In this document: positions 9,922 through 53,363 of the stretch, one piece after another
How positions within the stretch are numbered: position 1 is the stretch's first letter
How the letters are laid out: each line of letters starts with the position of its first letter
IMG/VR virus record: IMGVR_UViG_3300037419_001546
Coordinates: 1 to 64,000 of that record
Strand: one strand, 5' to 3'
DNA: 64,000 bases
Source: a virus
Lineage: Duplodnaviria; Caudoviricetes
Translations under genes and position numbers: made by a program
Notes under the pieces: model-generated
What the model saw: only the letters and a program-made list of their open reading frames with translations
The model's database searches: none
What the model was told of the DNA's origin: nothing

Positions 9922-12900
9922 CAGTAGGTCACCAGTGCTCCCTGCTCTTGGACGGCGTTCCACCGGTCCTGCTCGCGCATGAGGTGGTCGACGTCCATCA
10001 GGTGCATGTCGCCGTTGAAGTTGATGCTGCGGTCGTGCGTGGTGGCACCCCCGCTGTCGCCGCCGCGCACCGTCATGCCCTGCGGCAGCGGTGCGAGCGC
10101 GGGGATGATGCCAGCGTTGATCGCCTCCAGCAGCGGCCCGTTCGCCGCGGCCGCGTCGGCCTTCACCATGAACTCGCCGACGCTCGCGCGGATGCGGTTG
10201 CTGTCCGAGCGGGGCCCGCCGATGCCGGTGATCCACCCGCCATCCGCGTAACCGTGGCCCTGACCCCACACGCCCTCCGGCGACCCGTACCGGTTGACCG
10301 TGTACAACAGCGACGCAGCGATATTCGCCGCCGGATCCCAGATGTCGTTCGGGTACAGCGCCGACCGGTACGCGGCGAAGGTCGGGTCGATGACCTGCAT
10401 CAGTCCCTTGGACGGGGTGCCCTTCGCGGCGTTGGAGTCCGACAGGTTGATCGCCTTCGGGTTGCCGCCGGATTCGGTGTTCATCTGCGACATGCCGAGA
10501 CCGATCCAGCCGGCGGGCATACCGAGCGAGGACAGCACCGACGCGAAGGTGGGCCGCCACTGCTCGACACCGGCCGATTCCGAGTAGCTGACGTTTCCGG
10601 TGTAGTTGCCGTTGCCGGTCGCGTACGCCTGATATCCGGCCTGGCCGGTGTACAGGCCGCCCTGGCTGGCCGCCTGGTCCTCGACAGGCAGGTTCTTCGG
10701 GGTGTAGCCGGTGTTGGTGTCGTCGGCCTCGTCCGCGGCTTCCTTGTCCTGATCGGTGTAGTGCTTGACGATCGTGTTGAAGGCCTTGTTGTACGGGTTC
10801 GAACCGGCCAGTACCGAGTTCTCCAGGCCGAAGAACGACAGGATTCCGGCGCCGAGCAATCCGCCTGCGGCGGAGAGGATCCCGGGCACCGAGTACTCGT
10901 CGGGGAGTTTGTTCTTGTCGTCCTTCTCCTTCTGCGCCGCGCGCAGGGCGCGCTGGCTGGACAGGTAGTCGTTGTCGGCGCGCTGCTTCTGGTTCGGCGT
11001 CGAGTTCGGGTCCGAATACACCTGGTTGCGTTTGGTGTTCGCCTCATCGACGGATTGCTGCGCGTTCTCGATGTCGATCTGGTGCTTCGACTTGTAGGAC
11101 GGGGCGTCGACCTGCGGCAGTTCCTTCGTCGGCGTGACACCGCCGGAGGCCTTCTGCTGCTGCAGCTCGGCCACCTTCTGGTGCGCGCTGTCGACCTTCT
11201 GCTGCAGTTCCCGCTTGTCGTCGTCGGTCAGGTTCTTCTTGAACTGCAGGTCGGTGGCCTGGTCCTTCTCGGCCTTCTGCTGCGCCTGGATGGCCTGCTG
11301 CAGTTTCTGCTCGTCGTCGTTGGTCCAGCCGACCGCGCCGCCGGTGGCCATGCCTCGGACGAGGCCGGCCTTCAGTGCGGCACGGAACCGGTAGACGCCG
11401 GCCTGGCCGCCGAGCTTCTGGACGTCGGTCGTGTCGAGCATGTGCTCGCCGTCCATGGCGAGCAGCGGCACCGAGTCCACGCCGGGGATACCGCCAGAGA
11501 TCGCGCCGCCGAGCGCTTTCGGCGCCGCCGGGATCACCGCCGGAGCGCCCGGCCCGGCCACACCTGGAGTCGTCAGGAACTGGTAGGCGAGCGCCGGGTT
11601 TTGCACCGAGACGGTGACGTTCTTCGTCTCCGGCTTCGTGATGTCGGCGATGTCGGTCCGGGCCTTCGCATCGTCGAGGACGATCTTCACCGAGCCATCG
11701 GGCAGCGTATCCACGATGCGACCGAGTTCGCCGAGCTGCCGCTTCTGGTCATCAGTGGGGGTCTTGACCACCACGGTCCGGCCATCGAGAGCGGTTACGT
11801 TCTCGATGGCGATGCCCATGCCACGGAAGGCGTCCGCACCTTCTTTGGTGATGACGTTCGTGGTTCCCAACGACGCCGCGGTGCGCCGGTTGGACTCGCC
11901 CATCTTCGCCAGCTCGGAATCGACGCCGTTCAGCTGGCCGCCGAGTGTGGCCGCGCTCTCGCCGATGTCGTTGAGGTTGTTCTTCAGCTCGTGCAGGTCG
12001 GGCAGACGGTTCTCGCCCGTGTGCTTGCCAGCCGTCGCCGCGGTGAATTTGTCGACCGCCGGCTGTACACCCGCGAGAGCCGCGGCGATTTCCTCGTCGG
12101 ACAGGCCGGTCTGAGACCGGATGTCTTCCCACTGGCGATTGGGCCGGGCGCGCTGCTGCTCGACAACGATCCCCGTGAGCCGCTGGTTGATCCGATCCTT
12201 TGCTGCGGAGTCGAGCCCCGTCGCGCCGGAGACCAGATCCTGCGTGTTCACGCCGAGGGTCTGGGCGCGCTCCAGATAGCCGCCCTTCTCCAGGAACTGC
12301 GCGGTGCTCTTGCGGGTCGCCTCGGTGGCGAGACCGGACTGCTTGTCCAGGGTTTCGCCGAGGGTCTGCAGTTCCTGACGCTGCCGCGCGGCAGCGTCGG
12401 CCGCCTCCTGGTGCTTGGTCGCGAGGAATCCCAACCCGACCGTGGCGGCGCCGATCGCCAGACCCCACGGCCCGCCGAGCGCGGAACCGATCAGCGTGGA
12501 CACGCCGCCCATCGCGGAACCGAGCTTCCCGGCGCCGCCCTCGGCTGCCTCGGACGCGCCACGTTTGAAGGTGGACAGCGCGCCGCCGGCGGTCTCGATC
12601 GAGCCCTTCATGATGTCGAAGACGGGGCCGATCGTCTTGAACGCCAGGTATGCGAGGACGACGTCTTGCACCAGCTGCGGGTGCTCGCCGAGCAGTTTCG
12701 CCGCGGCCTGGAGGAACGGCATCAGCAGCGACGACCAGGTGCTACTCGCCTCGTACACGGCGTGGATCAGGCTCGGAAGCTGCTCGAGGATCGGCTCCCA
12801 TTCCTTCAGCTGGCCCTGGCCGTCGCGGAAGAACTCCGTCAGCTTCTGTTGCCCGTCAGTGGATTTCAACCACACCGCCATGCGCTCGGTGAGGTGATCG

Positions 12901-14087
12901 ACCGTGACCAGCAATCCGTCGCCATCACCCTTCGCGGCCTTCAGCACCGACGACAGCGACGAACCCAGATTGGCGAGGATCGAGCCGAGCGTCTTCACCG
13001 CGTCAACACCCTCGTGCATGTGCTGCGCGAGCTCGCCCGACTGCTGCGACTGCTGCAGATAGTGATCGAGCCGCGTGCTCAGATTGGCGAATCCCTGCCC
13101 GAATTCCGGCAGGAACTTGCTGCCCTCAGTGGTGAGGATGCGGATCGAGTCGATGATCGGGACGATCGCGCCGTTGGCCTTGTCCGCGCCCTTGGCGGTG
13201 TTGTCGAAGATCGTCGACAGCGCGCCCTGCGACTTGTCGTTGCCCAGCTCGGTGAGCGCGGTCTTGATCCCCGTGTTGAACGACCCCGCAACGCCCTTCA
13301 TGCCCTTCTCCAGGACAGGAATGTCGTTCGAGATCGTCTGCTTCAGCGGCGCCGCGACACCTTCGAACATCGCGCCCTGAACGGTCTTCTCCAGCGACTT
13401 CACCTGAGCGTCGGCGCCCCTGGTCGCCATGACGACCTCTTGCGCGCTGGAGGCCATCTGGCCATACGCCGCAGCAGCCTTCTTCGGGTCGTCGCTGAAC
13501 GCGTCCTTCATGCCCTGCAACCCGACGACCAGCGTCGAAATACCAGCGCCCGCACCGGCGAAGATCCCCGGCAGCAGCAGGCCAGCCTGCGACACCTGCT
13601 GGATCGACGTCGCCATACCGGCCAGCGCGGCCGCCGCTGCGGGCAGATTCCCGACACCGATCGCGCCAGCGTTCACCAGCGCCGACGACGGCAGCTTGCC
13701 GAGCGCGTCCTTCAAGGTGGAGGTGTCGATCTCCATCTTGGCCTTGATGTCCCGGCTGGCCTGCTTTCGGAACGCCTCGGTCTTGGCAGTCGCGGCGCCG
13801 ACATCGGCGTCGATGTTGACAGTGAGGTCGGCGCCGTAGAAGTCCCGGAAGTCCTCCATATCGGCGGAGGCGCGCGTGGTGTCGAGCTCGACACCGATAT
13901 CGAGATCCCGCTCGGCGGTATCGCGCAGTTCCTCGATATCCCGCAGTGCCTGCGCAGTATCAGCGACAACCGGGATGGCGATCTCGGCGTCCACCGCCTC
14001 TAGGTGCGCGCGCAGCTTGATGACGAAGTCGTCGAAGTTCGGGGAGATGTCGACGCTGGCCGAGCCGGCCGAGTAGTTCCTGGCCAC
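9921..14087 (-). CDS. Tape measure protein with C-terminal lytic transglycosylase (SLT) domain
   Basis: 1388 aa, Ala/Gly-rich helical; QMNTESGGNPKAIN...SKGLMQVIDPTF...IAASLLY SLT motifs. Confidence 0.92.
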   Translation of the reverse strand: MARNYSAGSASVDISPNFDDFVIKLRAHLEAVDAEIAIPVVADTAQALRDIEELRDTAERDLDIGVELDTTRASADMEDFRDFYGADLTVNIDADVGAATAKTEAFRKQASRDIKAKMEIDTSTLKDALGKLPSSALVNAGAIGVGNLPAAAAALAGMATSIQQVSQAGLLLPGIFAGAGAGISTLVVGLQGMKDAFSDDPKKAAAAYGQMASSAQEVVMATRGADAQVKSLEKTVQGAMFEGVAAPLKQTISNDIPVLEKGMKGVAGSFNTGIKTALTELGNDKSQGALSTIFDNTAKGADKANGAIVPIIDSIRILTTEGSKFLPEFGQGFANLSTRLDHYLQQSQQSGELAQHMHEGVDAVKTLGSILANLGSSLSSVLKAAKGDGDGLLVTVDHLTERMAVWLKSTDGQQKLTEFFRDGQGQLKEWEPILEQLPSLIHAVYEASSTWSSLLMPFLQAAAKLLGEHPQLVQDVVLAYLAFKTIGPVFDIMKGSIETAGGALSTFKRGASEAAEGGAGKLGSAMGGVSTLIGSALGGPWGLAIGAATVGLGFLATKHQEAADAAARQRQELQTLGETLDKQSGLATEATRKSTAQFLEKGGYLERAQTLGVNTQDLVSGATGLDSAAKDRINQRLTGIVVEQQRARPNRQWEDIRSQTGLSDEEIAAALAGVQPAVDKFTAATAGKHTGENRLPDLHELKNNLNDIGESAATLGGQLNGVDSELAKMGESNRRTAASLGTTNVITKEGADAFRGMGIAIENVTALDGRTVVVKTPTDDQKRQLGELGRIVDTLPDGSVKIVLDDAKARTDIADITKPETKNVTVSVQNPALAYQFLTTPGVAGPGAPAVIPAAPKALGGAISGGIPGVDSVPLLAMDGEHMLDTTDVQKLGGQAGVYRFRAALKAGLVRGMATGGAVGWTNDDEQKLQQAIQAQQKAEKDQATDLQFKKNLTDDDKRELQQKVDSAHQKVAELQQQKASGGVTPTKELPQVDAPSYKSKHQIDIENAQQSVDEANTKRNQVYSDPNSTPNQKQRADNDYLSSQRALRAAQKEKDDKNKLPDEYSVPGILSAAGGLLGAGILSFFGLENSVLAGSNPYNKAFNTIVKHYTDQDKEAADEADDTNTGYTPKNLPVEDQAASQGGLYTGQAGYQAYATGNGNYTGNVSYSESAGVEQWRPTFASVLSSLGMPAGWIGLGMSQMNTESGGNPKAINLSDSNAAKGTPSKGLMQVIDPTFAAYRSALYPNDIWDPAANIAASLLYTVNRYGSPEGVWGQGHGYADGGWITGIGGPRSDSNRIRASVGEFMVKADAAAANGPLLEAINAGIIPALAPLPQGMTVRGGDSGGATTHDRSINFNGDMHLMDVDHLMREQDRWNAVQEQGALVTY

Positions 14088-15057: not shown

Positions 15058-15969
15058 TCAGGAGACGGTGACCGCGCAGGTGCCGTTCAGGGCGCCGAGG
15101 GTGGCCGTGATGTTGGCGGTGCCAGCCGCGACCGCGGTGACCCGGCCGGCGGCATCGACGGTGGCCTTCGAGGTCGCCGACGAGGCGTAGGTGGCCTCGG
15201 CGGTACGGTCGAAGCCGTTGTCGTCGGTAACCGTGAGACGCGCGGTCTGACCCGCCGTCAAGGCCAGGGTCGGCGGGGTCACGAGGATGGAGGACGGCGC
15301 GCTCAGAAACCCGGCATCGTCCGCGATCAGGTCGAAACCGGAACCCGCGACACCGAAGTCGTACACGCCGCCTTCGGCGCCGAAGTCGTGGTCTTCGAAG
15401 ATCGTCAGGGTGTTGCCGAGCGGCAGTTCCTTGCCGGACTGGCCGTTCATCGCGCCCCGCTTCGAGGCCGCGACCTTCGGGAACATGAAGAACGGGTACA
15501 GGTCGCCGCTGGGGTTGACGTCCCGCGCGATCAGAAGGGCCGAGTAGTAGAAGACGTTCAGCTCGCTGGTCTTGCTGACTCGGAAGCCCTTGCCCGGCTG
15601 AGCGGAGGCTGCCGCCATCTGCACGTTGTGCCAGATCGACAGGTTGATCTTGCTCCACTCCTGCGCGATGTAGTCGATGGTCATCGACTCCCCGGTGGGC
15701 ACCACGCGTCGCGCCGCCGACGAGCCATAGCCCTCGATCGGGGACGTCTGCAGGTCGGGCGCCAGGCTGACCGCGGCGGCCTTCTGGACCTCACCCGCCG
15801 TCTGCCATCCGGCCGGCAGGGTCTGGATGACGCCGGACGAATCGCAGATGTCGGTCGGCATGTAGGGCGCGCCGGGCTGCCATTCGTGCAGGAACAGAGC
15901 CCAGTCGAGCGCGGAGAAGACGAGAGAATCGTTCTTGCCCTTCAGGGCGTGATACGTGGTAGCGGGCAT
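15058..15969 (-). CDS. Major tail protein with C-terminal Ig-like domain
   Basis: Position; C-terminal ILVTPPTLALTAGQT...ATYASS..KATVDAAGRVTAV Big_2-like domain. Confidence 0.85.
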   Translation of the reverse strand: MPATTYHALKGKNDSLVFSALDWALFLHEWQPGAPYMPTDICDSSGVIQTLPAGWQTAGEVQKAAAVSLAPDLQTSPIEGYGSSAARRVVPTGESMTIDYIAQEWSKINLSIWHNVQMAAASAQPGKGFRVSKTSELNVFYYSALLIARDVNPSGDLYPFFMFPKVAASKRGAMNGQSGKELPLGNTLTIFEDHDFGAEGGVYDFGVAGSGFDLIADDAGFLSAPSSILVTPPTLALTAGQTARLTVTDDNGFDRTAEATYASSATSKATVDAAGRVTAVAAGTANITATLGALNGTCAVTVS

Positions 15970-17603: not shown

Positions 17604-17975
17604 CTACTCCTCCGTCTTGCGGCCGGACTGCCGCGGTGCGGCCTTCTTCGCCGGCGTGGCCTTCTTCGCCGGTTCCGGCTCGGACTCCGGCTGCGGCTCA
17701 GGCTCCGCTTCCAGCTCGGGTTCCGGCTGCGGTTCCGCTTCCGGTTCCGGCTGGGGTTCCGGCTCGGGAGCGGGCTCCGGCTCCGGCGCGCGTTCCGGCT
17801 CGGGCTCCGGCTGCGGCTCAGGCTCCTGGCCCTGCACCACGTTGATCCGGTCGAACCGTTCCAGGAAGTCCGGATGCACCTCGACGGTGTCCCCGGCGTA
17901 CGCCAGCCGATGCCGGCCGTCCGGACGCTGATAGGTCATCAGGCCCACGCGGACGGTGCGCTTGGCCGCACTCAT
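17604..17975 (-). CDS. Small capsid-region protein with Glu-Pro repeat and basic tail
   Basis: (EP)n tract followed by [10 protein letters not shown]. Confidence 0.65.
17690..17830. repeat. Degenerate hexamer tandem repeat (GGCTCC/GGTTCC) encoding Glu-Pro
   Basis: Visible in the sequence. Confidence 0.8.
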
Positions 17976-18880
17976 GCCGCCAGCCCCGTCACCTTCAGCA
18001 CCGAATACGGCTGGGTGACCGCGAACACGGGCCGGATCGAGGTCTGCACCCAGGTCGACTCGGTGCTCTCGTCACGCCAGGTGACGGTGCGCAGTTCCTG
18101 CTCGAACCGCATCTGGCCGACCATGCCGGCCTCCACCGCGTACGCGGTGCCCGCCGTGACCTGGTTCGACGAGATCATCTCGACGTTGTTGTTGGCCAGC
18201 ACATCCCGCCACCGATCACCGTAGGTGGTCTGGAAGTTGGTCATCTCCTGCGGATTCACGATCCACAGGTTGTACTCGCCACCCAGCTCGAAGGTGTCGG
18301 CCTTCAGCTGCGCCTTCGCGAAGTCGGCCGCCGGCTGGATGTTGTTCGCCGTGGTGGTCAGCGTCAGCCCCGCGGCATCGGCCCACGACACACCGGTCAT
18401 CTGCACATCGGAGCCGATCGCGGTGATACTGGCATCCAGCTCGGCGATCGCCCGCCGATGCAGATCCTTGGTGATCGTGTTGCCCAGCTTCGCGCCCTCG
18501 TTCTGGATGACCGAGAGATCGTTGCGGTCGCGGGCCTCGTCGGTGATCCGGAACTTGCCACCGATCTTCTTGACCAGCGACACCTGCGGCGCCGGCCGAT
18601 CGAAGGTCACCTCGGGGAACTCGGCGCCCGGCGCGACTTCCTGCACGTTGCGAGTCGCGAACAGGTCGTTCGCCAGCAGCTGCGTGTACAGCAGCGCACC
18701 GCCCGACACCCCACCGGGAGTCGAGAAGATGCGGTTGGCGAAGAACTTCTTCAGCGCGATATCGCTGATGTAGGTGTTGATCCGCGTCGGCTGCTGAAGC
18801 ATCAGGTCGACGGTGATGTTGTTGCCGGAGACGCTGGGCGTGCCGAGCGGGTACTCCTGGCTGTACGCAGTAGGTGCCAT
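17972..18880 (-). CDS. Major capsid protein
   Basis: VAPGAEFP and [16 protein letters not shown] motifs; follows scaffold and decoration genes. Confidence 0.85.
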
Positions 18881-20968: not shown

Positions 20969-22417
20969 CTACCCCGCTGAAGCAGGTGCGGCGCCGGCGG
21001 GAACGTCGCCGCCGCCGGTCGGCTGGAAATCGCGGCCATCCTGCTCGGCGCGGGCCCGCCGGGCGCGGTCGACCTTCTCTCGCGTCCAGCCGGGAATGTC
21101 TTCCCACAGGATTTCGTCCGGGATGCCGAGCATCTGCGCCAGCTTCCCGAGACCATCCACCACCTGCGCGAACGAACGGGCGGTCTGGTCGCGCCATTTC
21201 ACCTCGGACGCGAAGTCCTGCGCGGACACAGCGTCACCGGAGATGTAGGCGCAGGTGCGCAGCATCTGCTCGTGCGATTCGCCGAGGCTGGTCTCGATCT
21301 CACCGGCCTTGCGGTCCTTGCCGGCCTCCAGACCCTCCAGGGTGGCTTCGGAGATATTCGAGATCCCGTCGATACCGAGGTTCTGGGCGGGCACCTGGCC
21401 GATCGCGGCGATGTCGCGCACCGCGTCACCCTTGGCGCCGGTGTAGTTCTTCAGGTCAGTCGCATCGAACTGGCCGACCTTGACTTCCTTGTCCTTGAAG
21501 AACCAGGTGTCAGAGGCGGCGTGGCGCATTGCCTCGGCCTGATCCCTCGGGATCCAGCCCATGACGTACCGTTGCCGGAACGCCGAGTAATACTGGGCGA
21601 CAAGGCCTTCGAACACCGTCTCGTCAATGCGCTCCTGGATCACCATGAGCGGCTCGATGATGCCGAACACTTCTTCACCGTCGAGCAGCATCCGGTCCCG
21701 GTACCGCACGATCGGGCACACGCCGACACCATGCGCGCGACCTTCGATGTACTCGAAGTTGCTTGGCCGCAGGTAGGTCGCTTCCTTCCATCCGAGAGCG
21801 GAGTGTGGCACCGACTTCACGCCAATGAAGTGCACATTCTGCTCGTCGTACAGCCGGATCATCGGGCCGTTCATCTCCATCGCGACGATCGGCCAATCGT
21901 CATCGACCGGGCCGCCGGTGCGCGGATCCCACTCCAGCGGCTCGCCGTACAGGGCAGTCATCTGCCGCGGCGACACACCGCGCAGGTAGACGCCGTTGGA
22001 TGGGTCGTTCGGCCGCATCGATGGCAGCACCGTCACATACGACACCCCGTACTGCAGCGCGGTGCGGTGCACGCCGGTCTGGCGGGCGTCGAACTTGTTG
22101 CGCTGCCACCACTCCCACGGCGGCGCCGACGTCTGACCAGTGCCGGGCAGATAATCGTCCACCTTCATGGACTGACCGAAGGTGTCCAGGATCAGCGGCA
22201 GGAAGTTCGTCTGCGACTTGCGCGCCAGGCCGACCAGCGGCGACAACGGGCCCTGGAGCTGGGTGCTCGTCAATCCGCGGATCTCCAGGCACTCCAATGC
22301 CCGCTGGCTGGTCCACGGACGCATCGCGACGTCGATCTTGTCCAGCCGTTCGAGCTCGAAGGGCCTCGGCCCGGACAGCATCTGCCGGACGGCGTCGAGA
22401 GCCTGTTCCCGGTTCAC
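20969..22417 (-). CDS. Portal protein
   Basis: Follows terminase; SPP1-type actinophage portal features. Confidence 0.88.
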   Translation of the reverse strand: MNREQALDAVRQMLSGPRPFELERLDKIDVAMRPWTSQRALECLEIRGLTSTQLQGPLSPLVGLARKSQTNFLPLILDTFGQSMKVDDYLPGTGQTSAPPWEWWQRNKFDARQTGVHRTALQYGVSYVTVLPSMRPNDPSNGVYLRGVSPRQMTALYGEPLEWDPRTGGPVDDDWPIVAMEMNGPMIRLYDEQNVHFIGVKSVPHSALGWKEATYLRPSNFEYIEGRAHGVGVCPIVRYRDRMLLDGEEVFGIIEPLMVIQERIDETVFEGLVAQYYSAFRQRYVMGWIPRDQAEAMRHAASDTWFFKDKEVKVGQFDATDLKNYTGAKGDAVRDIAAIGQVPAQNLGIDGISNISEATLEGLEAGKDRKAGEIETSLGESHEQMLRTCAYISGDAVSAQDFASEVKWRDQTARSFAQVVDGLGKLAQMLGIPDEILWEDIPGWTREKVDRARRARAEQDGRDFQPTGGGDVPAGAAPASAG

Positions 22418-22430
22418 CGATCACCGCCTC

Positions 22431-24215
22431 TCACACGAACATTGCTTCGTAGGTCATCTCCTGGCGCGGTACCGCCAGCCACATCTGCCGCATCAGTCGC
22501 GCACCCACCGCGGCGACCGCGCCGTCGACCTTCTTCGCCGACTCGCGGTGTTCCTTGCCGAGGCCGACACCGAACTTGTTCGGCCGGCGCTTCGCGTTGT
22601 AGTGGTGCTGGGCGAGGATCTTGTGTCCGTCGTGCCGGAACGCCCGGTCGCTGATGTCGGTCGTGTATCGTTCGGCAGCCTCGGTGTGCAGCTTCAGGTG
22701 GCGCGGGTTGCGCATGTCCCAGATGATCGGGTGGATGAAGTCGCCCGACTTCACCGCTGGCAGTTGCCATTCCTGCAGCTGCGCCCACTCATCGCAGTAC
22801 GGCTCCCAGTATCGTTCGCCGGTCTCGTCGTCGCGCGCGTCGGACGGATCCCACCACAGCCCCAGCACATCCCACGTCCCGCAGGACTCGCGCACACGCT
22901 GATCGACCGCGGCCCGGCTGACGAGCCAGCGCACCTTGCTGCTCATCCCCGTGGGGCGCTGCCAGATCCCGGCGTAGAAGACGTTGCCGGTATCGAGGTG
23001 GCAGCCGATCAGCGCGGTCGCGTCGTCGGACTTCGAGCCATCCCCGAACAGGAACACCCGATCGCCCGCCGGCGGCCGCCAGCCTTCGTCCTTGATCGCG
23101 TCCCACAACTGCCGAGTCGTCCACGCGTCGGCCGCGGCCAGGCGCTGGTTGTACCACTTGCGTCGGGACTCGCTCGGCGGGTTCGACGTGTTCAGGATCG
23201 ACATCATGATGCGGCCGTTCGGCCGAGTATCCAGCCAGTACGAGTCGCCCTTGATCGACTCCAGCACCGCCGGCGCATCCTCCGCAGTGAGCGGAGCGTC
23301 GGGCGGCGCTTCGAGCGAGTCGTACATCAGGCCGAACTCCAGCGCGCTCGGATCCTCGCCGGTGGTCGCGTCGTAGGCGTCACGCATCCGCTCGCCCACC
23401 GAATCCTCACCGTCGCGGCAGGCGTTGCAGATATCGACCATGCGGGCCGGGGCGTCGATCTCCGACTTCGCGGCGTTGCCCTCCAGGGCGCCGGCCATCT
23501 CGTGGCCCGAGTTCGACGACAGCCAGTTCTGCGTCTCCGCCCGGATCACCAGCGTCGGGCGGCCACCCTCAATGGTGAGCGGGTTCGATGTCACCGCCTC
23601 GATCAGGCGAGTGTCGCCGAGGCCCCAGATCATGAGCTTGCCGATCTGGATCCCGTAGTGCGAGCGCGTCTCTCGCGGCACCAGGCTCGGGAACAGGCGC
23701 ATCGTGTTCTTCGTCTGCGCCTCGGCCACCGCGATGATCTGCACCCACGCGTTCGGCTCGTCCCGGCCCACCGGCCGGTCGCCGTCCCAGTGGTCGAACG
23801 TCACCTCAGCGAAGCACGCGGCCATCGCCAGGCAGGCCGCCAGCGGGTCCTTACCCCAGCCCTTCAGCCGCTGCAGCACCGCCGAGTGGTGCAGGAAATC
23901 GCCGTTCGGGTCGATCGCGAAGAACCACAGGATGAAGCGGGTCTGCTCCGGCGTGAACTGCCACGGCTGGCCCTTCTTGTCCCGCAACCACTTCCCGCAC
24001 CAGGCCAGCACCCGCCAGCCGAGCGTGTGCTCCGGCAGGCACCAACCGGTGTCCGGATCCCACTGCCACGTCGGGCCGACCTTGACCGGCTCCCACGCCA
24101 GGTTCGCAGGCGGCGCAGTGGTGGCCAGCTGGTTCTCGTACCACCGGATGATCTCAGCGAACTCATCCTCAGCCGAGACGATCAGGGCAGGGCCAGAATT
24201 ACGCGCTCTGGCCAC
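22431..24215 (-). CDS. terL: Terminase large subunit
   Basis: QRLKGWGKDP Walker A variant; FGDGSKSDDATAL nuclease motif; KKVDGAVA. Confidence 0.92.
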   Translation of the reverse strand: MARARNSGPALIVSAEDEFAEIIRWYENQLATTAPPANLAWEPVKVGPTWQWDPDTGWCLPEHTLGWRVLAWCGKWLRDKKGQPWQFTPEQTRFILWFFAIDPNGDFLHHSAVLQRLKGWGKDPLAACLAMAACFAEVTFDHWDGDRPVGRDEPNAWVQIIAVAEAQTKNTMRLFPSLVPRETRSHYGIQIGKLMIWGLGDTRLIEAVTSNPLTIEGGRPTLVIRAETQNWLSSNSGHEMAGALEGNAAKSEIDAPARMVDICNACRDGEDSVGERMRDAYDATTGEDPSALEFGLMYDSLEAPPDAPLTAEDAPAVLESIKGDSYWLDTRPNGRIMMSILNTSNPPSESRRKWYNQRLAAADAWTTRQLWDAIKDEGWRPPAGDRVFLFGDGSKSDDATALIGCHLDTGNVFYAGIWQRPTGMSSKVRWLVSRAAVDQRVRESCGTWDVLGLWWDPSDARDDETGERYWEPYCDEWAQLQEWQLPAVKSGDFIHPIIWDMRNPRHLKLHTEAAERYTTDISDRAFRHDGHKILAQHHYNAKRRPNKFGVGLGKEHRESAKKVDGAVAAVGARLMRQMWLAVPRQEMTYEAMFV

Positions 24216-24599: not shown

Positions 24600-24730
24600 C
24601 GGCTGGCTGAGTCGACGCGAGGCCGACCGGAAAAACAGGAGAGGGTCGCACGCAGGATCTGGGGTGCTTTGTACCCCGCCATGGGGGCGGGGCCGATCGG
24701 GGGTCACCCCCCAGGGGTACCGGCTGCGCG
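24600..24730. other. Candidate cos/packaging region
   Basis: Between HNH and terS; G/C-run palindromes (GGGGTCACCCCCCAGGGG) resembling actinophage genome-end regions; exact ends cannot be determined. Confidence 0.4.
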
Positions 24731-25003
24731 CCGGCCTGGGTGGGGCTCTGAGGGTCGGCGTCGGGACCGGCGGGCGAGGCCTTCGGCTGCCTCGGTCCTG
24801 GTCTTCAGGTCGTGGCATCCGGGGCAGAGCGTCTGCAGGTTGTCATCGTCATCGGTGCCGCCGCGCGCCACGTTGATGATGTGGTCGACTTCGTAGCCGG
24901 GGCTGCCGCAGCGCTGGCAGGTGTAGTTGTCGCGTTCGCGGATCCGTTGAGCTGTCGCGCGGTCGACGCCGCGGTACCGGTCAGGGTCGGTGGACCAGGC
25001 CAT
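24704..25003 (-). CDS. HNH endonuclease (packaging-associated)
   Basis: RDNYTCQRC...EVDHI...GG.DD.DNLQTLC..CHDLKT. Confidence 0.9.
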   Translation of the reverse strand: MAWSTDPDRYRGVDRATAQRIRERDNYTCQRCGSPGYEVDHIINVARGGTDDDDNLQTLCPGCHDLKTRTEAAEGLARRSRRRPSEPHPGRRAAGTPGG

Positions 25004-25070
25004 GCGGTCCTCCCGTGTCGCCTCGGCGATTCGGGGATGTACTGCGGCCTGGTCCTTTACCCTGTGCGGC

Positions 25071-25343
25071 GTGACGGATGAGGAACGTGAGCGGGTTGAA
25101 CGTGAGCTGCAGGCGCTGCGTGAGCAGAACGCGAGTTTGGCCAGGACGTTGGCCGATGGCGAGACGGAGCGGATAGTCCGCGAGGCGCTGGCCACGAAGG
25201 CGCGGGCGATCTCGCAGGGCAGGCCCGATATCGCTGAGGGTGCGCAGCAGGTGATCGACAGGCTGGTGGATCAGCATGTGAAGTCGACGCTGACGCATAT
25301 GGAGTCGGTCGATGTGGAGCGGCAGCATTCGGGCGACGAGTAG
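25071..25343 (+). CDS. Hypothetical coiled-coil protein, opposite strand
   Basis: Protein-like helical composition; fills the gap between minus-strand genes. Confidence 0.5.
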   Translation: MTDEERERVERELQALREQNASLARTLADGETERIVREALATKARAISQGRPDIAEGAQQVIDRLVDQHVKSTLTHMESVDVERQHSGDE

Positions 25344-28761: not shown

Positions 28762-28901
28762 TACCGCCCGAGGAATAGTCGGTGGAAGTGACGAGGTGTC
28801 CTAGGCCGCTAGACGACGGAAGGCGTGCCCTCCGGCGGGATTCGAACCCGCGTTACCGCTTGTTGAGAGCGAAGTAACTCCTACCTGCGCACCGGGCGGT
28901 A
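28762..28901 (-). ncRNA. Y RNA 2 (YrlA-like) with permuted tRNA-Glu-like domain
   Basis: Terminal stem UACCGCCCG/CGGGCGGUA; GGUGCGCAG...CCGACU; T-arm GCGGG-UUCGAAU-CCCGC; 7-bp acceptor stem closed by CACG; D-arm GUC-UAGCGGCCUAG-GAC. Confidence 0.88.
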
Positions 28902-44633: not shown

Positions 44634-45313
44634 GACGCAACCGCTTCCGGCTCGCCGAACACGGACACGTACGGGTGGGCGAGGATCGCCAAATGCTCAG
44701 CGGCGGAATCGTTCTGGCCGATCAGGTCGGTGAGCATGAGCGCCCGCGTGATGCTGCGCACCGCGTGCTCCGCTGCGGCGATAGCCTCCCAGTGGAGGTC
44801 CAAGTCGCGGTAGTTGATCGCGGCCACGGCGGCGTCACGGGCTGCATCCCATCTGTCCTCCGCCTTCGCCGTCGAGGCGGCTCGCGTCAGGTCATGCAGC
44901 GCGCGTAGCGCCGACCCGCAGCGCGAACTGAAGTCGGAATCGACGTCGGCCATCTGCTGCAGCTGCTCGGGGGTGGCGGCTGCGACGGTGCGCACGACGG
45001 CCACGATCCGGCGCCACTGCGGGCCGAAGGTGTCCTCGAGGTCGCCGTCGGTGATCTCCGTGGTGGCGAGATAGCCGCGCACGTCATCGGCAGTGCGCCC
45101 ACGGTCGTCGTTCCATTCCTCGGCGCGGTCGCGGGAACGATGCACCGCACGGACGAGACCGAAGTCGCCGGGCACGGGCGTGCAGTGCTTGAGCGCACCG
45201 GACAGGCAGACGCCGGACCGGGTCTCCATCTCGCCCTGGATCCAGCCGTGCTCGTCGATGTAGGCGGCGGCCGCGCGGCAGGCTGCGGTCAGAGTCTGTG
45301 CGGGGGCGGTCAC
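44630..45313 (-). CDS. DUF6197-like actinophage protein
   Basis: AA.YI.EHGWIQG...CL.GAL...WND..GRT..DV. Confidence 0.6.
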   Translation of the reverse strand: MTAPAQTLTAACRAAAAYIDEHGWIQGEMETRSGVCLSGALKHCTPVPGDFGLVRAVHRSRDRAEEWNDDRGRTADDVRGYLATTEITDGDLEDTFGPQWRRIVAVVRTVAAATPEQLQQMADVDSDFSSRCGSALRALHDLTRAASTAKAEDRWDAARDAAVAAINYRDLDLHWEAIAAAEHAVRSITRALMLTDLIGQNDSAAEHLAILAHPYVSVFGEPEAVAS

Positions 45314-45510
45314 GAGGCTTCCGCCTGCTCGTCGCGGGCCTTGCGGTAGGCCTCGACATCCTCCGGGCGCAGGACGTAGGCGCCCGTTCTGCCTGGAAGT
45401 TTCTCGGCTGGTAGCTGGTGTGTGCGGATGAGGTCAACGACTGCCCGGCGCCCGATGTTGAGCAGTTCGGCAACCTCCACAACACCGAGCAGTTTCACGG
45501 TTTTGTGCAT
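45310..45510 (-). CDS. Cro-like / excisionase-type HTH protein
   Basis: 66 aa, LL.V.EVAELL.I.R..V..LI....LPA.KL; divergent from the repressor. Confidence 0.8.
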   Translation of the reverse strand: MHKTVKLLGVVEVAELLNIGRRAVVDLIRTHQLPAEKLPGRTGAYVLRPEDVEAYRKARDEQAEAS

Positions 45511-45610
45511 AAGCCAAGTTCTACACCTAACTTGGCGTATGCACAAGATTTGCCGGGTGTGTCGGAGTTTTGCATACGTTGCCAAACTTGGTTGAGTCTG
45601 CCAAACTTGG
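45503..45610. promoter_or_regulatory. Cro/repressor divergent control region with operator-like repeats
   Basis: 44-bp imperfect palindrome 45503-45546; TGCCAAACTTGG twice (45580-45591, 45599-45610). Confidence 0.7.
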
Positions 45611-45614
45611 CGGC

Positions 45615-46052
45615 ATGACGAGAGCGCACGCGGTGGGAAGGATCCCGGAGATCACGCTTCACCACCGGCTTCGAATTGCACGAGAGACCGCCGGCCTCGA
45701 TCAGGGGCAGCTCGCGGAGATGGTGGGGGTCAGTCGCAACTCGATCGGTAACGCCGAATCGGGCAAGCACGCGCCCCGGAAAATCCTGATCAACGCATGG
45801 GCACTCGCTACGGGCGTGCCTGCGTACTGGCTTGAAACAGGAGAAACCCCCCACCCGAATGGACCGGGTGAGGGGTCGTTGCTCCCCCATCTGGACTCGA
45901 ACCAGAAACCTGCCGGTTTACAGCCTCAGCGCTCTGACCAGCACGTTTTCGAGAACGTTTTCCCACTTCCGGGAACACCCTCGCGTAACCGGCCCGCGGC
46001 CGCTTCTCCGGCCCGTGTGAGCTCCGCCACGTCGGAGGTGGCGGCAGCATGA
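45615..46052 (+). CDS. Immunity repressor, long (attP/virion) form with att core inside and C-terminal ...EVAAA
   Basis: XRE HTH HRLRIARETAGLDQGQLAEMVGVSRNSIGNAESG; tRNA-derived core within the ORF; BPs-type architecture. Confidence 0.88.
   Translation: MTRAHAVGRIPEITLHHRLRIARETAGLDQGQLAEMVGVSRNSIGNAESGKHAPRKILINAWALATGVPAYWLETGETPHPNGPGEGSLLPHLDSNQKPAGLQPQRSDQHVFENVFPLPGTPSRNRPAAASPARVSSATSEVAAA
45846..45876 (-). terminator. Intrinsic terminator for the reconstituted tRNA
   Basis: 12-bp stem ACCCCTCACCCG/CGGGTGGGGGGT followed by TTCT, just 3' of the tRNA half on the minus strand. Confidence 0.7.
45881..45925 (-). other. att common core: 3' half of a tRNA-Asn-like gene (attP-type site)
   Basis: Minus strand GGCTGTAAACCGGCAGGTTTCTGGTTCGAGTCCAGATGGGGGAGC: anticodon loop, T-arm and acceptor 3' strand; no D-arm or 5' half. 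Confidence 0.85.
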
Positions 46053-46234
46053 GGACGAGCACACCCGCACTTGCCATTGCGCGGCAAGGCGATATCTGGC
46101 CCGGTCGCTATAGCGACATCGATGCGGCGTGGCGGACTGCGGACTGGTGCACAAAGCATTACGCCGGCGCGCCTTTCCGTGTGATCGATATCCGGACCGG
46201 CGAGCTGACTCAGCGCAAGGCGGTCGCGGCATGA
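46049..46234 (+). CDS. Small hypothetical protein coupled to the long repressor
   Basis: ATGA overlap with the repressor stop. Confidence 0.55.
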   Translation: MRTSTPALAIARQGDIWPGRYSDIDAAWRTADWCTKHYAGAPFRVIDIRTGELTQRKAVAA

Positions 46235-46518
46235 GCGCCCCCGCCGTGACCGTCCTCGACTTCGCAACCGAGGCCGCGGCGATCGACGATGCGCGCGAAG
46301 CGGCCCACGCTGGGCTGCGGGCGGCGAACGTGCGCGGTGTCACCGGCGACGATCTCGATGCTTTCAGCGGCGCAATGGAATCGGTGCAGCAGCGGTGCGA
46401 GATCCTGCGCCGCGCGTTCTACCCGCGCCGAGCTCAGCTGTGGATCGGGAACGGCACGGCGATGACGCTCTCGGCGACCGGCCGGTCGCGCCGGATCGTC
46501 TGGCAGCGCCCGCGATGA
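46231..46518 (+). CDS. Small hypothetical protein
   Basis: ATGA overlap; MSAPAVTVLDF... Confidence 0.55.
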   Translation: MSAPAVTVLDFATEAAAIDDAREAAHAGLRAANVRGVTGDDLDAFSGAMESVQQRCEILRRAFYPRRAQLWIGNGTAMTLSATGRSRRIVWQRPR

Positions 46519-46781
46519 CCACCGTGCTCACGCCCGGCGGTCCGATCCCGCAGCGGACGCTGTTCGCGATGGCGCGCCTCAGCGCGGTCGAGGCGCACAA
46601 CGAACTCGACGATGCGGCCGCGTGGCTCGACAGCGAGACCATCGGCGGCCGACTGCCGGCGGTCGCTGCGCTCGCGCGTCTCAACGCGATCCAGAAGCTC
46701 GCCCGTGCGGCTGACCTCATCAATGAGGCGGCCGCCGATCTCGACAGCGCGACCGAGTACTACCGGCGAACGCTCCGGTAG
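46515..46781 (+). CDS. Small helical hypothetical protein
   Basis: ATGA overlap; MTTVLTPGG... Confidence 0.55.
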   Translation: MTTVLTPGGPIPQRTLFAMARLSAVEAHNELDDAAAWLDSETIGGRLPAVAALARLNAIQKLARAADLINEAAADLDSATEYYRRTLR

Positions 46782-46825
46782 CCGCGGTAATAACGATCTT
46801 GCTCCGATTGGACAACGGTCCAGGG

Positions 46826-46860
46826 ATCCCCTAATTGGAGTAGTACAACAATTAGGGGAT
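46826..46860. promoter_or_regulatory. Perfect 12-bp inverted repeat in an AT-rich region upstream of int
   Basis: ATCCCCTAATTG-11 nt-CAATTAGGGGAT. Confidence 0.55.
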
Positions 46861-46967
46861 GGATCGAACCGAACGTTAAACCAATTCAGACAATTCACAC
46901 CAATCGCAAAGAAATTCAACGACGAATTTCGGGCGCGGTTGGTTTTCATATATACGGCGGATAAAAA

Positions 46968-47876
46968 ATGAGCAACATTGTCGAAATTCGTTACTCACGC
47001 TCAAAAGGTCAACTAAAACCGATCACTATGACCGGTAACTGTATGTTGTCCGTTCCGCGCCAGTGGACCGGGCCCATCGAAAAGTTCGAAGAGTTCCTAC
47101 GAGCCATCGGCCGACCCAAATCTACTAGACGACTACGTATCTACCATCTCCGGCGGTTCGCCGTAGACCATCGCCGCACCCATCCATGGGAAGTGACCGA
47201 GGACAACCTCGTCACATGGATGGCAAGCCGCGACTGGGCGCCCGAAACCCGCCGATCCTATCGAGCGAGTCTGCGAGGGTTCTACTCCTGGGCCCTCGCC
47301 AAGGGACACATCACCGCCGACCCGTCCTACAACCTCCCCGCCCCCACACCGCCGCCGGCCAAGCCGCGGCCCGCGCCCGACGAAGTCGTCGACTGCGGTC
47401 TGCGGTCCGTCGACCTGCGGGTACGGGTCGCGGTCATGATCTTCGCGTTTACGGGTATGCGTAGACATGAGGCGGCGAAGATGCACACCGACGATCTGAT
47501 CTCACGCTCGGACGGCTGGTACGTCCGAGTCGTCGGAAAGGGCGGCCGGGTGCGGCTGATCCCGGTCGATGATCTGTTCGCTTCGGCGATCCGGTCGATG
47601 CCGCCGGGGTTCATCTTTCCGGGCAAGATCGACGGGCACATCAGCGCGAACCACCTCGGCAAGATCGTCTCCCGGGACCTGCCCGGCGACTGGACGGCGC
47701 ACACGCTGCGCCACCGGTTCGCGAGCCTGGCGTACTCCATCGAGCGCGACATTCGTGCCGTGCAGGAGCTGCTGGGACACGCCAAGGTAACCACCACTCA
47801 GATCTACACTTTCGTTCCGGAAGAAAGCTTGCGCCGCGCCGCGGCGGGCGCGAGACGCGGCCTCACCGCCGCGTAA
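46968..47876 (+). CDS. int: Tyrosine integrase (true start may be 47028 or 47043)
   Basis: R (GMRRHE), K (VGKGG), HxxR (HTLRHRF), H (LGHA), Y (TTQIY); ends GLTAA. Confidence 0.93.
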   Translation: MSNIVEIRYSRSKGQLKPITMTGNCMLSVPRQWTGPIEKFEEFLRAIGRPKSTRRLRIYHLRRFAVDHRRTHPWEVTEDNLVTWMASRDWAPETRRSYRASLRGFYSWALAKGHITADPSYNLPAPTPPPAKPRPAPDEVVDCGLRSVDLRVRVAVMIFAFTGMRRHEAAKMHTDDLISRSDGWYVRVVGKGGRVRLIPVDDLFASAIRSMPPGFIFPGKIDGHISANHLGKIVSRDLPGDWTAHTLRHRFASLAYSIERDIRAVQELLGHAKVTTTQIYTFVPEESLRRAAAGARRGLTAA

Positions 47877-47889
47877 CAGAATAAAGAAT

Positions 47890-47922
47890 CCGCCCCGGGC
47901 TACTCCTAATAGCCCGGGGCGG
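47890..47922 (+). terminator. Terminator hairpin after int
   Basis: 13-bp stem CCGCCCCGGGCTA/TAGCCCGGGGCGG followed by TTCTGTTT. Confidence 0.8.
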
Positions 47923-48137: not shown

Positions 48138-48395
48138 TCAGCTCTCGCGCGGATCCTTCCAAGGGCCGTCCGGGCCGGTAGCGCCTGGCGGCCGCCACGG
48201 CTTCGAACCGGCTGCCCGGCGGGCCATCGTCGCCGCCTCGCGCCCGGTCCGGCCGGACTGCTCGAGGACAGCGAGATCGACACCGCCGCTCTTGCTGGCG
48301 ACGAGGGTGATCAGCTCGTCGGTGGCATCCTGCAGTTCCTGCTGCGCCCGGGCCACGCGCTCGTATGCGGCTGCGATCGCGTCATCGGTGCTCAT
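48138..48395 (-). CDS. Small hypothetical protein coupled to the XRE-TPR gene
   Basis: ATGA overlap; MSTDDAIAAAYERV... Confidence 0.55.
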   Translation of the reverse strand: MSTDDAIAAAYERVARAQQELQDATDELITLVASKSGGVDLAVLEQSGRTGREAATMARRAAGSKPWRPPGATGPDGPWKDPRES

Positions 48396-49645
48396 GCGCG
48401 CATGATATCGCGGGCGTTCAGGCGAGCGTCGAGCGCGCGCACCGGCTTCGACCCCGCCCACGGCGAGAGCTGGCGCCGCGCGTCGAGGATCGCGCGTGCC
48501 AGCCGCGGCGACCGGTTACGGTCGGTCAGCTCCGCCGCCTCACCGACCATCGCGGCCGCTTCCTCGATCTCGCCCAGCTGAATGAGCGAGCGCTGCAGCT
48601 CCAGCATCGACAGCGCCCGATCACGCGGCCGTGTCGGATCCAGCAGCGCGACCGCCCGGCGCGAGGCCTCGGCCGCTGGCCGCGCGTCGCCGAGCATGGT
48701 GAGGCATCCGCCCCAGAACGCGTCGAGCATGGCGGGCCCGGTGAAGTACGCGCGCGATTCAGCCGGCGTGGCCGGACCGAGATCGGCCGCCGCCTTGGAT
48801 GCCGATTCGAGCGCCTTCGTGCTCGCCTCGCCCTGCGCCGAGAGCGCGGCCGCCTCGGCGAGCCGCAGATCGACGTACGCGCGCAGATGACGGTCTCCGG
48901 ACTGCGCGACCCACGATTGCGCCGCGACCGCGTGATCCATCGCGATGCGCGGTGAACGGTCCTGCCAGATCGCGAGCTGCGACAGATGGCACAGCATATA
49001 CGCGGACAGGTCGGAATCTTCTGCCTCGTGGGCGATCTCGCGCGCCTGCTGATACATCGTCGCCGCGCGACCGTAGTCGCCGCGGTCCCAGGCGAGGCAC
49101 CCTGCGAAGCCGACCCACTCGCCGTGCAGCGAAAGCAGTTCGGGCCGTAGCGATTCCGGGCATTCACGCAGCATCGTCTCGGTGAGCGCCAGCTGCGCGT
49201 CGGCCATGCCTTGCGCTGCCGGTGAGCCCATCGAATCGTCGAGGGTCATCGCCGCGTGCAGCGTGGTGCGCACATGCGACAGCGCCCACTCGTCGGGCCG
49301 GCCGGATCCAGCGGCCAGCGCCGCGGCCCGTGCCGGGTCGGCCATCGCGGCGGCGCCGACAGCTGCAGCGCTGGCGGTGGTGGCGATGAATGTGCGTCGG
49401 TCCACGTCGTTCTCCTCGTTTCCGAGCAACTTCTGCTCGAAGACGGCTACGACACTGTCCGGCGCGGAGGCCAGCAACGTATCGAGGTCGGCCTGATTGG
49501 CCCATCCGATCGGGTTGCCGGCCTCCCACCGCTGGACGGTGCGCAAGGTGGTTCCGAGCTTGGCTGCAAATTTGGACTGACTCAGCCGGTACGCGTCGCG
49601 TAGCGCGCGTGATTCCGTGCCGGTCCAAGAAACGACGGTAGTCAT
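48392..49645 (-). CDS. XRE HTH plus helical/TPR-like regulator (actinobacterial type)
   Basis: WTG.E.RALR.A..LSQ..FA..LG...RTV.RWE.G, then VDRRTF and helical repeats. Confidence 0.8.
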   Translation of the reverse strand: MTTVVSWTGTESRALRDAYRLSQSKFAAKLGTTLRTVQRWEAGNPIGWANQADLDTLLASAPDSVVAVFEQKLLGNEENDVDRRTFIATTASAAAVGAAAMADPARAAALAAGSGRPDEWALSHVRTTLHAAMTLDDSMGSPAAQGMADAQLALTETMLRECPESLRPELLSLHGEWVGFAGCLAWDRGDYGRAATMYQQAREIAHEAEDSDLSAYMLCHLSQLAIWQDRSPRIAMDHAVAAQSWVAQSGDRHLRAYVDLRLAEAAALSAQGEASTKALESASKAAADLGPATPAESRAYFTGPAMLDAFWGGCLTMLGDARPAAEASRRAVALLDPTRPRDRALSMLELQRSLIQLGEIEEAAAMVGEAAELTDRNRSPRLARAILDARRQLSPWAGSKPVRALDARLNARDIMRA

Positions 49646-49812
49646 GCGGCACCCCTCGCAATAGTGGTCCACTTCACCATAACGCAGGCATGTCGTATCT
49701 ACGTCGTATTCACGTCGTAGGGGTTGGGCCGAAAGTCATGTGTACGCCCCGCCGCCGGGCGCCGCAAGCCTCGACGGCGGGTGCGCATCACACTGCACGG
49801 GAAGGCAGCCAC

Positions 49813-52098: not shown

Positions 52099-53363
52099 GG
52101 GAGCGCCGCCACCAGCTCGGTAGCCATACGCTGATGCCCCAGCCAGCTGGGGTGAATCGTGTCTGTGGTGTAGTCGGGCCACAGCGCGGTGCTGCTGGTT
52201 CCGCGCATCGCGCCCGCGAAATCCACCACGCCGTTGCAGAATCCGGGCTGCGAGCCGATCCAGTCGTTGTAGGCCAGGCGCACGCTGTCGCCGGTCGACG
52301 TCCGGGATATGACGGTGCCCAGATACACGGATCCGGTGAAGCCGTAGGTCGTTTGCAGCCTGCTGACCAGAGTCCGAACCGACGCCTGTAGCCCCGCCAA
52401 GGTCGCGGACGCGCCGAAGATGTCGTTGCTGCCGCCGCAGATCAGCACCTCATCGAGAGTGAATGTGCCGAGGGCCAGCCGGTCCCAGATGTGCGCGACG
52501 CTGGCGTTCGAGAGAGCCGTCGCATAGTCCGAGAGTTTCCAGCCAGCCAACGACATGTTCACGATCAACCGGTTCGTCGCGGCGGCCCACAGGTAGACGT
52601 TGCCCTTCCACAATGGAGTCGGCACGATGCTCGCCGAAGTGGTTCCCTTCGCGCCGGCGATCGGCTCGAAGATGCTGTCGCCGATCACCAGGCACACCTT
52701 GCGGCGGCTGGTCGTCTGGTACTCGATGATCACGTCGAACGGTACGGAGGTGACAGTGCCGCCCGAACCGGCGACAGTGGGGTCCGTGGCTGAGGTCGAG
52801 TTGGACCAGGTCCACGCCTTCCCGGCGCCGGTCTGCACTGCGGTCGACGATGCGAATGTCCACCCGAAGGCCACCAGAAACTCGGTGTTCGCGGTGAACA
52901 GTCCCGGGCCACTGGTCACCAACGGAGCGTTGTAGTAGGACCCGTCTCCGGGGATCGTCTGATCCGTGGAGACGATCGTCGTCGCCGTATTGCCCGAGAA
53001 GCTGCCCGTCTCCGCGCCGGTGTTGTCGCTGCTCGACGGCGGGCTGTGCAGGCCGACAACCAACTTCTTGAGTGTGGCAGCGGTTTTCGCCGTCTCGGCC
53101 GTATCGCGGTTCCGGATCATCAGACGCCACTGCGTCACATCCACCGGCAGCTTCACTACGAACCGCGTGCTGCCAGCCGTCCCCGCCGCCAACGATGAGG
53201 TGACCGTGCCGCCGAGGCCGCCGTTGCTGTGCCGCAATGTACGGGTGACAGGCGGCCCGCCGTACAGGTCTTCGATTCCAGCCTCGATGCGGTTGAGCTG
53301 GACGGCCGTGATCGGCGTTGCCGTCGACGGCTCGCTCTCCCAGATTGTGCGGGACCACGACAT
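52095..53363 (-). CDS. Tail-associated SGNH/GDSL hydrolase
   Basis: VIGDSI, GGSNDI, DTIHP; N-terminal TPITAVQLNRIEAGI fibre-type motif. Confidence 0.88.
   Translation of the reverse strand: MSWSRTIWESEPSTATPITAVQLNRIEAGIEDLYGGPPVTRTLRHSNGGLGGTVTSSLAAGTAGSTRFVVKLPVDVTQWRLMIRNRDTAETAKTAATLKKLVVGLHSPPSSSDNTGAETGSFSGNTATTIVSTDQTIPGDGSYYNAPLVTSGPGLFTANTEFLVAFGWTFASSTAVQTGAGKAWTWSNSTSATDPTVAGSGGTVTSVPFDVIIEYQTTSRRKVCLVIGDSIFEPIAGAKGTTSASIVPTPLWKGNVYLWAAATNRLIVNMSLAGWKLSDYATALSNASVAHIWDRLALGTFTLDEVLICGGSNDIFGASATLAGLQASVRTLVSRLQTTYGFTGSVYLGTVISRTSTGDSVRLAYNDWIGSQPGFCNGVVDFAGAMRGTSSTALWPDYTTDTIHPSWLGHQRMATELVAALP

Follow-up and report, generated by a model that had tools for sequence, protein, structure and literature searches.

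The repressor gene at positions 45,615 to 46,052 of the window, the 64,000-nt stretch of viral DNA analyzed here, very probably represents the phage-side, read-through state of a BPs-type integration-dependent immunity switch whose bacterial attachment site (attB) is a tRNA-Asn(GTT) gene. Homology and anatomy both place the system in the known integration-dependent immunity family. The window comprises the first 64 kb of the 74,869-bp IMG/VR record IMGVR_UViG_3300037419_001546, which has a G+C content of 67%; coordinates beyond the window refer to this record.

Layout of the locus

The genes and intergenic regions of the immunity cassette are arranged as follows:

45310..45510, minus strand: HTH_17 protein of 66 aa, Cro/excisionase-like; gene 1 of the leftward early operon, divergent from rep
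45513..45611: operator-like repeats in the rep/cro intergenic region, GCCAAGTT-N8-AACTTGGC at 45513-45536 and GCCAAACTTGG at 45581 and 45600
45615..46052, plus strand: rep, long (read-through) form of 145 aa, with an HTH_3/XRE domain at residues 17-77 and the C-terminus ...SEVAAA
45921..46049, plus strand: C-terminal extension of rep, 43 codons with an ssrA-like AAA end, which integration would split from rep
46049-46234, 46231-46518 and 46515-46781, plus strand: three small ORFs, coupled to rep and to each other by ATGA overlaps
46782..46967: AT-rich spacer of 186 bp upstream of int, with the palindrome CCCCTAATTG...CAATTAGGGG read from the sequence
46968..47876, plus strand: tyrosine integrase (Int) of 302 aa, with SAM-like and catalytic domains and the C-terminus ...RRGLTAA

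The 145-aa Rep matches phrog_2328, annotated as 'transcriptional repressor' (E 3.6e-34), and is 46% identical to gp33 of BPs (E 3e-27) and 53% identical to the immunity repressor of Gordonia phage Twister6. Int matches the Pfam family Phage_integrase (E 8.8e-17), with 41% identity to BPs gp32 (E 2e-57) and 40% to the Int of Twister6; its domain content, limited to the SAM-like and catalytic domains, fits a simple arm-less integrase. The divergent 66-aa protein matches Pfam HTH_17 (E 1.4e-9) and phrog_66 (excisionase/regulator), a family that includes excisionases, and its similarity to BPs gp34 is only marginal. Counterparts of its gene occupy the same position in a prophage of Nocardia wallacei, described below, in Twister6 and in the related element L020. 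The spacer between rep and the HTH_17 gene is 104 bp long and holds two copies of GCCAAACTTGG, which occurs nowhere else in the 74.9 kb (0 expected). The repeats of this spacer are also kept in the N. wallacei prophage, and we regard them as putative operators. At the DNA level, a megablast search of 45300-47900 against 50,697 phage records returned nothing, nor did exact searches of IMG/VR with the rep tail, the rep 5' end and a general core pattern.

The rep and int genes lie on the same strand with 916 bp between them, occupied by the three ORFs and the AT-rich spacer. Neither a terminator nor a promoter was detected between the two genes on the plus strand, and a promoter-like site sought within 46782..46967 was not found. 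Int may be co-transcribed with rep, but this is uncertain because three ORFs and a 186-bp spacer intervene, unlike in BPs. The small ORFs have no Pfam and no PHROG match. The second and third have homologues, again placed between core and int, in N. wallacei and in L015, a Logan contig whose Int is 81% identical to that of the window; in L021, ORFs are likewise found between core and int, a correspondence of position only. Inserted ORFs between rep and int are a feature of L021 and N. wallacei also, and L021 contains an independent, intact rep-orf-orf-int unit.

On the far side of int, a 426-aa regulator with HTH_3 and TPR-like regions (48392-49672, minus strand; phrog_10886) adjoins the integrase gene on the opposite strand, and the N. 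wallacei prophage has a 396-aa HTH_3 protein in its place. Elsewhere in the window, ARAGORN called two over-long 'tRNA-Arg' genes (9147-9244, 98 nt, and 15135-15227, 93 nt) and a tRNA-Leu(CAA) at 28827-28899. Pfam yielded little for the ORFs of the lysis region.

The tRNA-Asn half and the switch codon

The 3' part of rep is superimposed on half of a tRNA gene, read in the antisense direction:

45881..45925, minus strand: 45-nt stretch that reproduces the 3' half of tRNA-Asn(GTT) antisense to rep, mismatched only at 45919
45918..45920, plus strand: switch codon, TTA (Leu102) in the phage and TAA in the host; complement of tRNA positions 37, 36 and 35

The tRNA-like stretch corresponds to rep codons 89-104. 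Read in the tRNA sense, it comprises the discriminator base, the acceptor 3' strand, a T arm (TCTGG/TTCGAGT/CCAGA), a 5-nt variable loop, the 3' strand of the anticodon stem (CCGGC) and the loop CTGTAAA; the 5' anticodon-stem strand in the phage copy is not tRNA-like. Identity runs for 38 nt, is broken by the single mismatch at 45919, and continues for 6 nt. No tRNA was called at the site by ARAGORN or by an Rfam scan of 45780-46020, as expected because only the 3' half is there, and ARAGORN found no tRNA-Asn in the whole 74.9-kb record.

We searched for the target of this half with positions 45881-45923, leaving the middle base of codon 102 free, in a collection with one genome per species (185,579 species). 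Exact matches were found in 10 contigs, all from actinobacterial metagenome-assembled genomes (MAGs), with no cultured host among them, and all ten lie inside tRNA-Asn(GTT) genes called by ARAGORN. The base equivalent to 45919 is A in each of these ten genes and T in the phage. The anticodon is consequently GTA in the phage copy and GTT in the host, and the rep codons that cross the anticodon loop are Gly101 (GGT, 45915-45917), codon 102 (TTA, 45918-45920) and codon 103 (CAG). The earlier note, made from the letters of the window alone, had read rep as running antisense through a tRNA 3' half, with GGT TTA CAG at the anticodon loop and ...SEVAAA at its end, and had predicted a GTT tRNA-Asn target in this register, the host loop of which would supply a stop when read antisense. 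Each of these points holds: the exact hits of the 43-nt pattern fall in tRNA-Asn genes only, codons 101-103 and the 145-aa C-terminus are as described, and the host sequence reads GGT or, in Nocardia, GAT, followed by TAA.

The triplet at the stop position is TTA in five phage-side copies (the window, the N. wallacei attR, L015, L020 and L021), TAC in L023 and AAA in L022, and it is TAA in every host tRNA-Asn; seven elements therefore keep a sense triplet where the host has a stop. Because TTA is almost absent elsewhere in the record (4 of 18,542 codons), its use at codon 102 is more likely to be dictated by the core than to reflect codon preference.

Two further observations concern the surroundings of the tRNA half. 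Positions 45926-45945 show a patchy similarity, with indels, to the D-arm region of the host tRNA 5' half (L012 10305-10330), for instance in CGCTCTG and CTCTGACC, which suggests that the attP region goes back to a more extensive tRNA segment, captured first and turned into coding sequence by later divergence. On contig L007 (3611-3700, minus strand), from a Nanopelagicales MAG, the tail of an ORF (...LGVDVATLFLGLPHLDSNQKPAG) runs antisense into a tRNA-Asn gene and stops at the anticodon TAA; this tail may be the remnant of an integrated element like the present one.

A natural lysogen of a relative

The closest homologue of Rep (P0001) is a 101-aa protein from Nocardia wallacei, 78% identical over residues 1-101. 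Its gene ends ...CCT GCC GAT TAA; on the opposite strand ARAGORN called an intact tRNA-Asn(GTT) gene whose anticodon loop supplies this TAA, and host genes follow beyond it. The other junction, attR, is on the same contig about 52.3 kb away; there the host flank leads into the core, then G..TTA..CAG and an in-frame tail ending ...GVAA, and downstream of the tail are two small ORFs and an Int that is 67% identical to that of the window. The lysogen thus has a 101-aa Rep without the tail at one end of the prophage, and the tail at the other. The sequence shared by these junctions and the window is:

45880..45915, minus strand: common core of 36 bp (TGCTCC...CTGCCG), identical in the window and in the N. 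wallacei attL and attR

The core spans the acceptor 3' strand, the T arm, the variable loop and 4 nt of the 3' anticodon-stem strand. The window and the Nocardia tRNA-Asn also differ at 45916, where the phage has G and the host A, and this second mismatch limits perfect identity to these 36 bp. The int-proximal junction has the bases of the phage (G at the base matching 45916, and TTA) and the rep-proximal junction those of the host (A and TAA); because the bases sort in this way, both strand exchanges must have taken place inside the 36 bp, 3' of the anticodon loop in the tRNA sense. The anticodon loop as the overlap region is excluded, as both N. wallacei exchanges fall inside the core. The dyad of the T loop is the obvious candidate for the exchange site. 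As a consequence of the difference at 45916, Rep in a Nocardia lysogen would end in ...PAD rather than ...PAG, with 101 aa in either case.

Nocardia provides the only demonstrated host-type tRNA-Asn, and the integrated state is seen in a relative rather than in the window phage itself; the rebuilding of the tRNA at the rep-proximal junction is accordingly an observation in N. wallacei that we extend to the window phage as probable. Within this scope, two predictions of the earlier note are borne out by the attL/attR pair, namely that integration would stop Rep at 101 aa on the anticodon and remove the tail, and that the crossover would lie 3' of the anticodon loop. Its proposals of a 45-bp core and of an attP that differs from the host by one base are right for the ten MAG tRNA-Asn genes, where the 45 bp carry the single mismatch at 45919, and wrong for Nocardia, where 45916 also differs and only 36 bp match perfectly.

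The Logan contig L015 (1-160) starts exactly at the core. Its rep tail lacks one nucleotide present in the window, and the loss, which brings a stop nine codons past the TTA, reflects either decay of an unused prophage remnant or an assembly error.

A hairpin beside the tRNA half

A further element lies next to the tRNA half:

45845..45877, minus strand (tRNA sense strand): GC-rich hairpin with a U-rich run after it, separated by 3 nt from the tRNA-like 3' end and located in rep codons 78-88

The scan gave a 14-pair stem, and folding gave -27.2 kcal/mol (z -3.3). The hairpin is encoded antisense within a Gly/Pro-rich linker of Rep and is also found in the N. wallacei attL (L012), L020 and L021, with compensatory changes at 5 of 13 pairs among the four sequences compared. 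This comparison of four sequences is suggestive of a candidate terminator, supplied by the phage, for the rebuilt tRNA-Asn gene.

Two phages in one record

The record contains two complete sets of virion genes, the major capsid proteins (MCPs) of which belong to different PHROG families:

Set A: TMP 9921-14087, MCP 17972-18880, portal 20969-22417, TerL 22431-24215
Set B: TMP 62453-65782, MCP 69195-70094, portal 71607-73085, TerL 73082-74563

As the record contains two phages, the N-terminal and C-terminal parts of the rep ORF may come from different ones, and the site could be either a true attP or a junction between prophages. We give a somewhat better than even chance to a true attP, in which bases 1-52291 are one complete, non-integrated and circularly assembled phage, and in which assembly then ran on into a second, related phage (bases 52419-74869). 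Bases 1-127 are repeated exactly at 52292-52418, with the first mismatch at base 128 and an identity of about 86% thereafter; an exact repeat of 127 nt is the signature of a vertex in a k=127 de Bruijn graph. The unit so delimited, of 52,291 bp, is close in size to the 52.3-kb prophage of N. wallacei and carries one virion set, the HNH-TerS-TerL genes, the early genes, rep and int. Its rep reads without interruption into the tagged tail, in the same frame, and the independent L021 unit is organized likewise. This reading nevertheless requires the assembler to have joined phage B through a shared edge, a connection absent from the true genome, and nothing in the remainder of the record matches its right end (the last 127 nt occur just once), so that the attachment of B is left unexplained. 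The right end of the record (74849-74869; L018 14849-14869) lies upstream of the set-B small terminase gene, only 20 nt from its start codon, and may be either a physical cos end or a tip of the graph.

The assignment of the early region bears on both readings. An HNH gene at 24704-25195 is syntenic with A-type TerS/TerL genes in 10 of the 12 IMG/VR relatives examined, and this synteny joins the early region to virion set A across cos; for the same reason a scheme in which two phages were joined at cos near 24.6 kb was rejected. Assignment of the modules by shared k-mers and tetranucleotide signatures did not discriminate, and the operator motifs, being present in the rep/cro spacer only, were no more informative. 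Proviruses resembling A have other integrases and no rep homologue, and in a provirus resembling B (G001) collinearity with B is confined to the stretch from TerS to about 55.06 kb.

A second, rather doubtful possibility is that the site is the hybrid att junction in the middle of a tandem of two different prophages at a single tRNA-Asn gene, with the 5' part of rep, the early genes and set A in one prophage and the rep tail, the small ORFs, int and set B in the other. Such tandems have been described for this type of immunity: the Mycobacterium abscessus prophages prophiT36-2a/b share one tRNA attB, and their inner junction joins the 5' part of one phage's rep to the 3' remnant of the other's (Amarh et al., 2023; PMC9934374). 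In the record, TerL, portal, MCP and TMP are each present twice, in two different and complete modules, one on each side of the single att core; the early region is joined to set A through cos, as it would be in a prophage; the B-like provirus (TerL 93% identical) lacks an early-region homologue; and with k=127 an assembler should not make a chimeric join at a 45-nt repeat. These facts, including the HNH synteny, fit the circular unit equally well, however, and the record contains neither a host flank nor a second junction. Moreover, tandems of this kind were argued to be viable only if the two rep parts are out of frame (Amarh et al., 2023; PMC9934374). In prophiT36-2a/b they are in different frames and the inner Rep loses its tag, whereas the junction in the window is in frame and keeps the tag, which would tag the repressor of A and be stable only if A and B were homo-immune. 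The in-frame, tagged junction hence favors a true attP, unless the two phages are homo-immune. It is conceivable, though less likely than not, that in a tandem with in-frame rep halves A would make only a tagged, degradable repressor and would be silenced by the truncated Rep of B. If the tandem reading were true, A would be a dependent 'hostage' prophage, an arrangement argued to be non-viable in the published analysis (PMC9934374). Under either reading, k=127 implies that the junction of rep, core and tail is a physically real molecule in the read-through state.

The C-termini of Rep and Int

Among long-form homologues of Rep, 11 of 19 end in AA and the other 8 have other ends. The Int C-terminus is AA in 13 of 14 close homologues, and the first small ORF after rep (46049-46234, plus strand) has the C-terminus ...AVAA, a third ssrA-like end in the cassette. 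In this GC-rich record AA ends are not rare, being found in 5 of 72 other ORFs (~7%). Rep homologues as a whole form two classes: proteins of about 101-103 aa in Nocardia, Rhodococcus and Gordonia genomes, which end just past the antisense T-arm motif, and longer forms from metagenomes.

It could be argued from the background of about 7% and from the 8 of 19 long homologues without AA that the location of attP alone explains the overlap with the tRNA, that the long Rep is functional and its AA end incidental, and that immunity is independent of integration. We consider this highly improbable, as Rep and Int are homologous to the experimentally characterized pair of BPs, AA is present on both proteins and retained in nearly all of the Int homologues, the chromosomal Rep homologues are consistently of about 101-103 aa, and seven elements maintain a sense triplet at the stop position. 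That the tRNA similarity is due to chance or is a decayed pseudogene with no role in recombination, as the lack of an ARAGORN or Rfam call at the site might suggest, is refuted by the attL/attR pair, in which the same 36 bp bound a 52-kb prophage, and is at odds with a 43-nt pattern with one free base that matches tRNA-Asn genes only.

Comparison with known systems

Integration-dependent immunity was reportedly described by Broussard and colleagues in 2013 for phage BPs, with gp32 as Int, gp33 as Rep and gp34 as Cro. As in the window, attP of BPs lies inside rep, attB overlaps the 3' half of a tRNA gene, Int has a C-terminal tag (in the window, as judged from its sequence), a small HTH gene is divergent from rep, and the stop results from a one-base difference between host and attP at the core edge. 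The two Rep forms are of 136 aa (viral) and 103 aa (prophage) in BPs, compared with 145 and 101 aa in the window, and attB is a tRNA-Arg gene in BPs and a tRNA-Asn gene here. By our own reading of the BPs attP sequence together with PMC9262239, the BPs stop (TGT to TGA) falls on anticodon-stem positions 41-39, whereas that of the window lies one codon further, on positions 37-35, and includes two anticodon bases. Published work on BPs shows that the ssrA-like tag of the long gp33 directs this protein to degradation, that the 103-aa form made in the prophage acts as the repressor, and that Int carries a tag too (PMC4557955, PMC9262239); the creation of a stop by one base at the core edge has likewise been published (PMC9262239). 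The statement of the earlier note that the principle is established for BPs-type systems is therefore accurate, and Rep and Int are homologues of gp33 and gp32. What is particular to the window is the location of the stop on the anticodon, and hence the changed anticodon of the phage copy. In the open literature searched for integration-dependent immunity together with 'anticodon', a search to which the original 2013 BPs paper was external, no anticodon-derived stop is described.

Among annotated phages the closest are Twister6 and Wizard (Wizardvirus) of Gordonia, which, with other Gordonia phages, have integration-dependent immunity (Pope et al., 2017; PMC5559632). Their repressors are 53-55% identical and their small Int-Y proteins 40% identical to those of the window, they share the order HTH gene, rep, int, and the C-terminal region of rep runs antisense through a tRNA T arm. 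Unlike the window phage, their attB is a tRNA-Arg gene in G. terrae, and DNA similarity to the record is undetectable. GMA5 has an extra ORF between rep and int, as in the window (PMC5559632).

Fionnbharth and the Cluster L phages exhibit tRNA-dependent lysogeny, in which integration at a core of about 10 bp destroys the host tRNA and the phage carries a replacement (Guerrero-Bustamante and Hatfull, 2024; PMC10865867). Common to these phages and the window are a tyrosine Int acting at a tRNA gene and mismatches between attP and attB that limit the position of strand exchange. In contrast, the 36-bp core of the window system rebuilds tRNA-Asn, as seen in N. wallacei, and no tRNA-Asn is carried in the record.

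Proposed mechanism

Taken together, these observations are consistent with the following course of events for a BPs-type switch at tRNA-Asn(GTT). Before integration, the phage TTA (anticodon GTA) would keep the long rep frame open, and Rep would be made as a 145-aa protein with an AAA end that resembles an ssrA tag. By analogy with BPs gp33, this long form would be degraded and would confer no immunity. The small tyrosine Int, also AA-ended, would exchange strands within the 36-bp core, most plausibly near the T-loop dyad. At the rep-proximal junction, an intact tRNA-Asn gene would be formed from the host 5' half and the phage 3' half, placing the host anticodon loop in the rep frame. Because the complement of tRNA A37, U36 and U35 reads TAA, Rep would then stop after residue 101 and lose the tag, and the tag-free 101-aa protein could hold lysogeny, as in the analogous case. 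The proteolysis of the long Rep, the identity of the protease and the activity of the 101-aa Rep are presumed from BPs.

Implications

The principle is known from BPs, including a one-base stop at the edge of the core, and a specialist would not be surprised by it. The practical value lies in better annotation of attP sites and rep genes in actinophages, and the compact Int/attP pair could be tried as an integration vector for Nocardia and its relatives. A natural, matched set of attP-type site, attL and attR confines strand exchange to 36 bp without bench work. For the biology of the family, these results extend integration-dependent immunity to a Nocardia-type phage lineage that targets tRNA-Asn. 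They also provide a case of multiple coding, in which the same bases serve as tRNA 3' half, integrase core and repressor codons, and possibly as a terminator, and in which phage and host need to differ at one position only, the very one that would otherwise be read as a stop.
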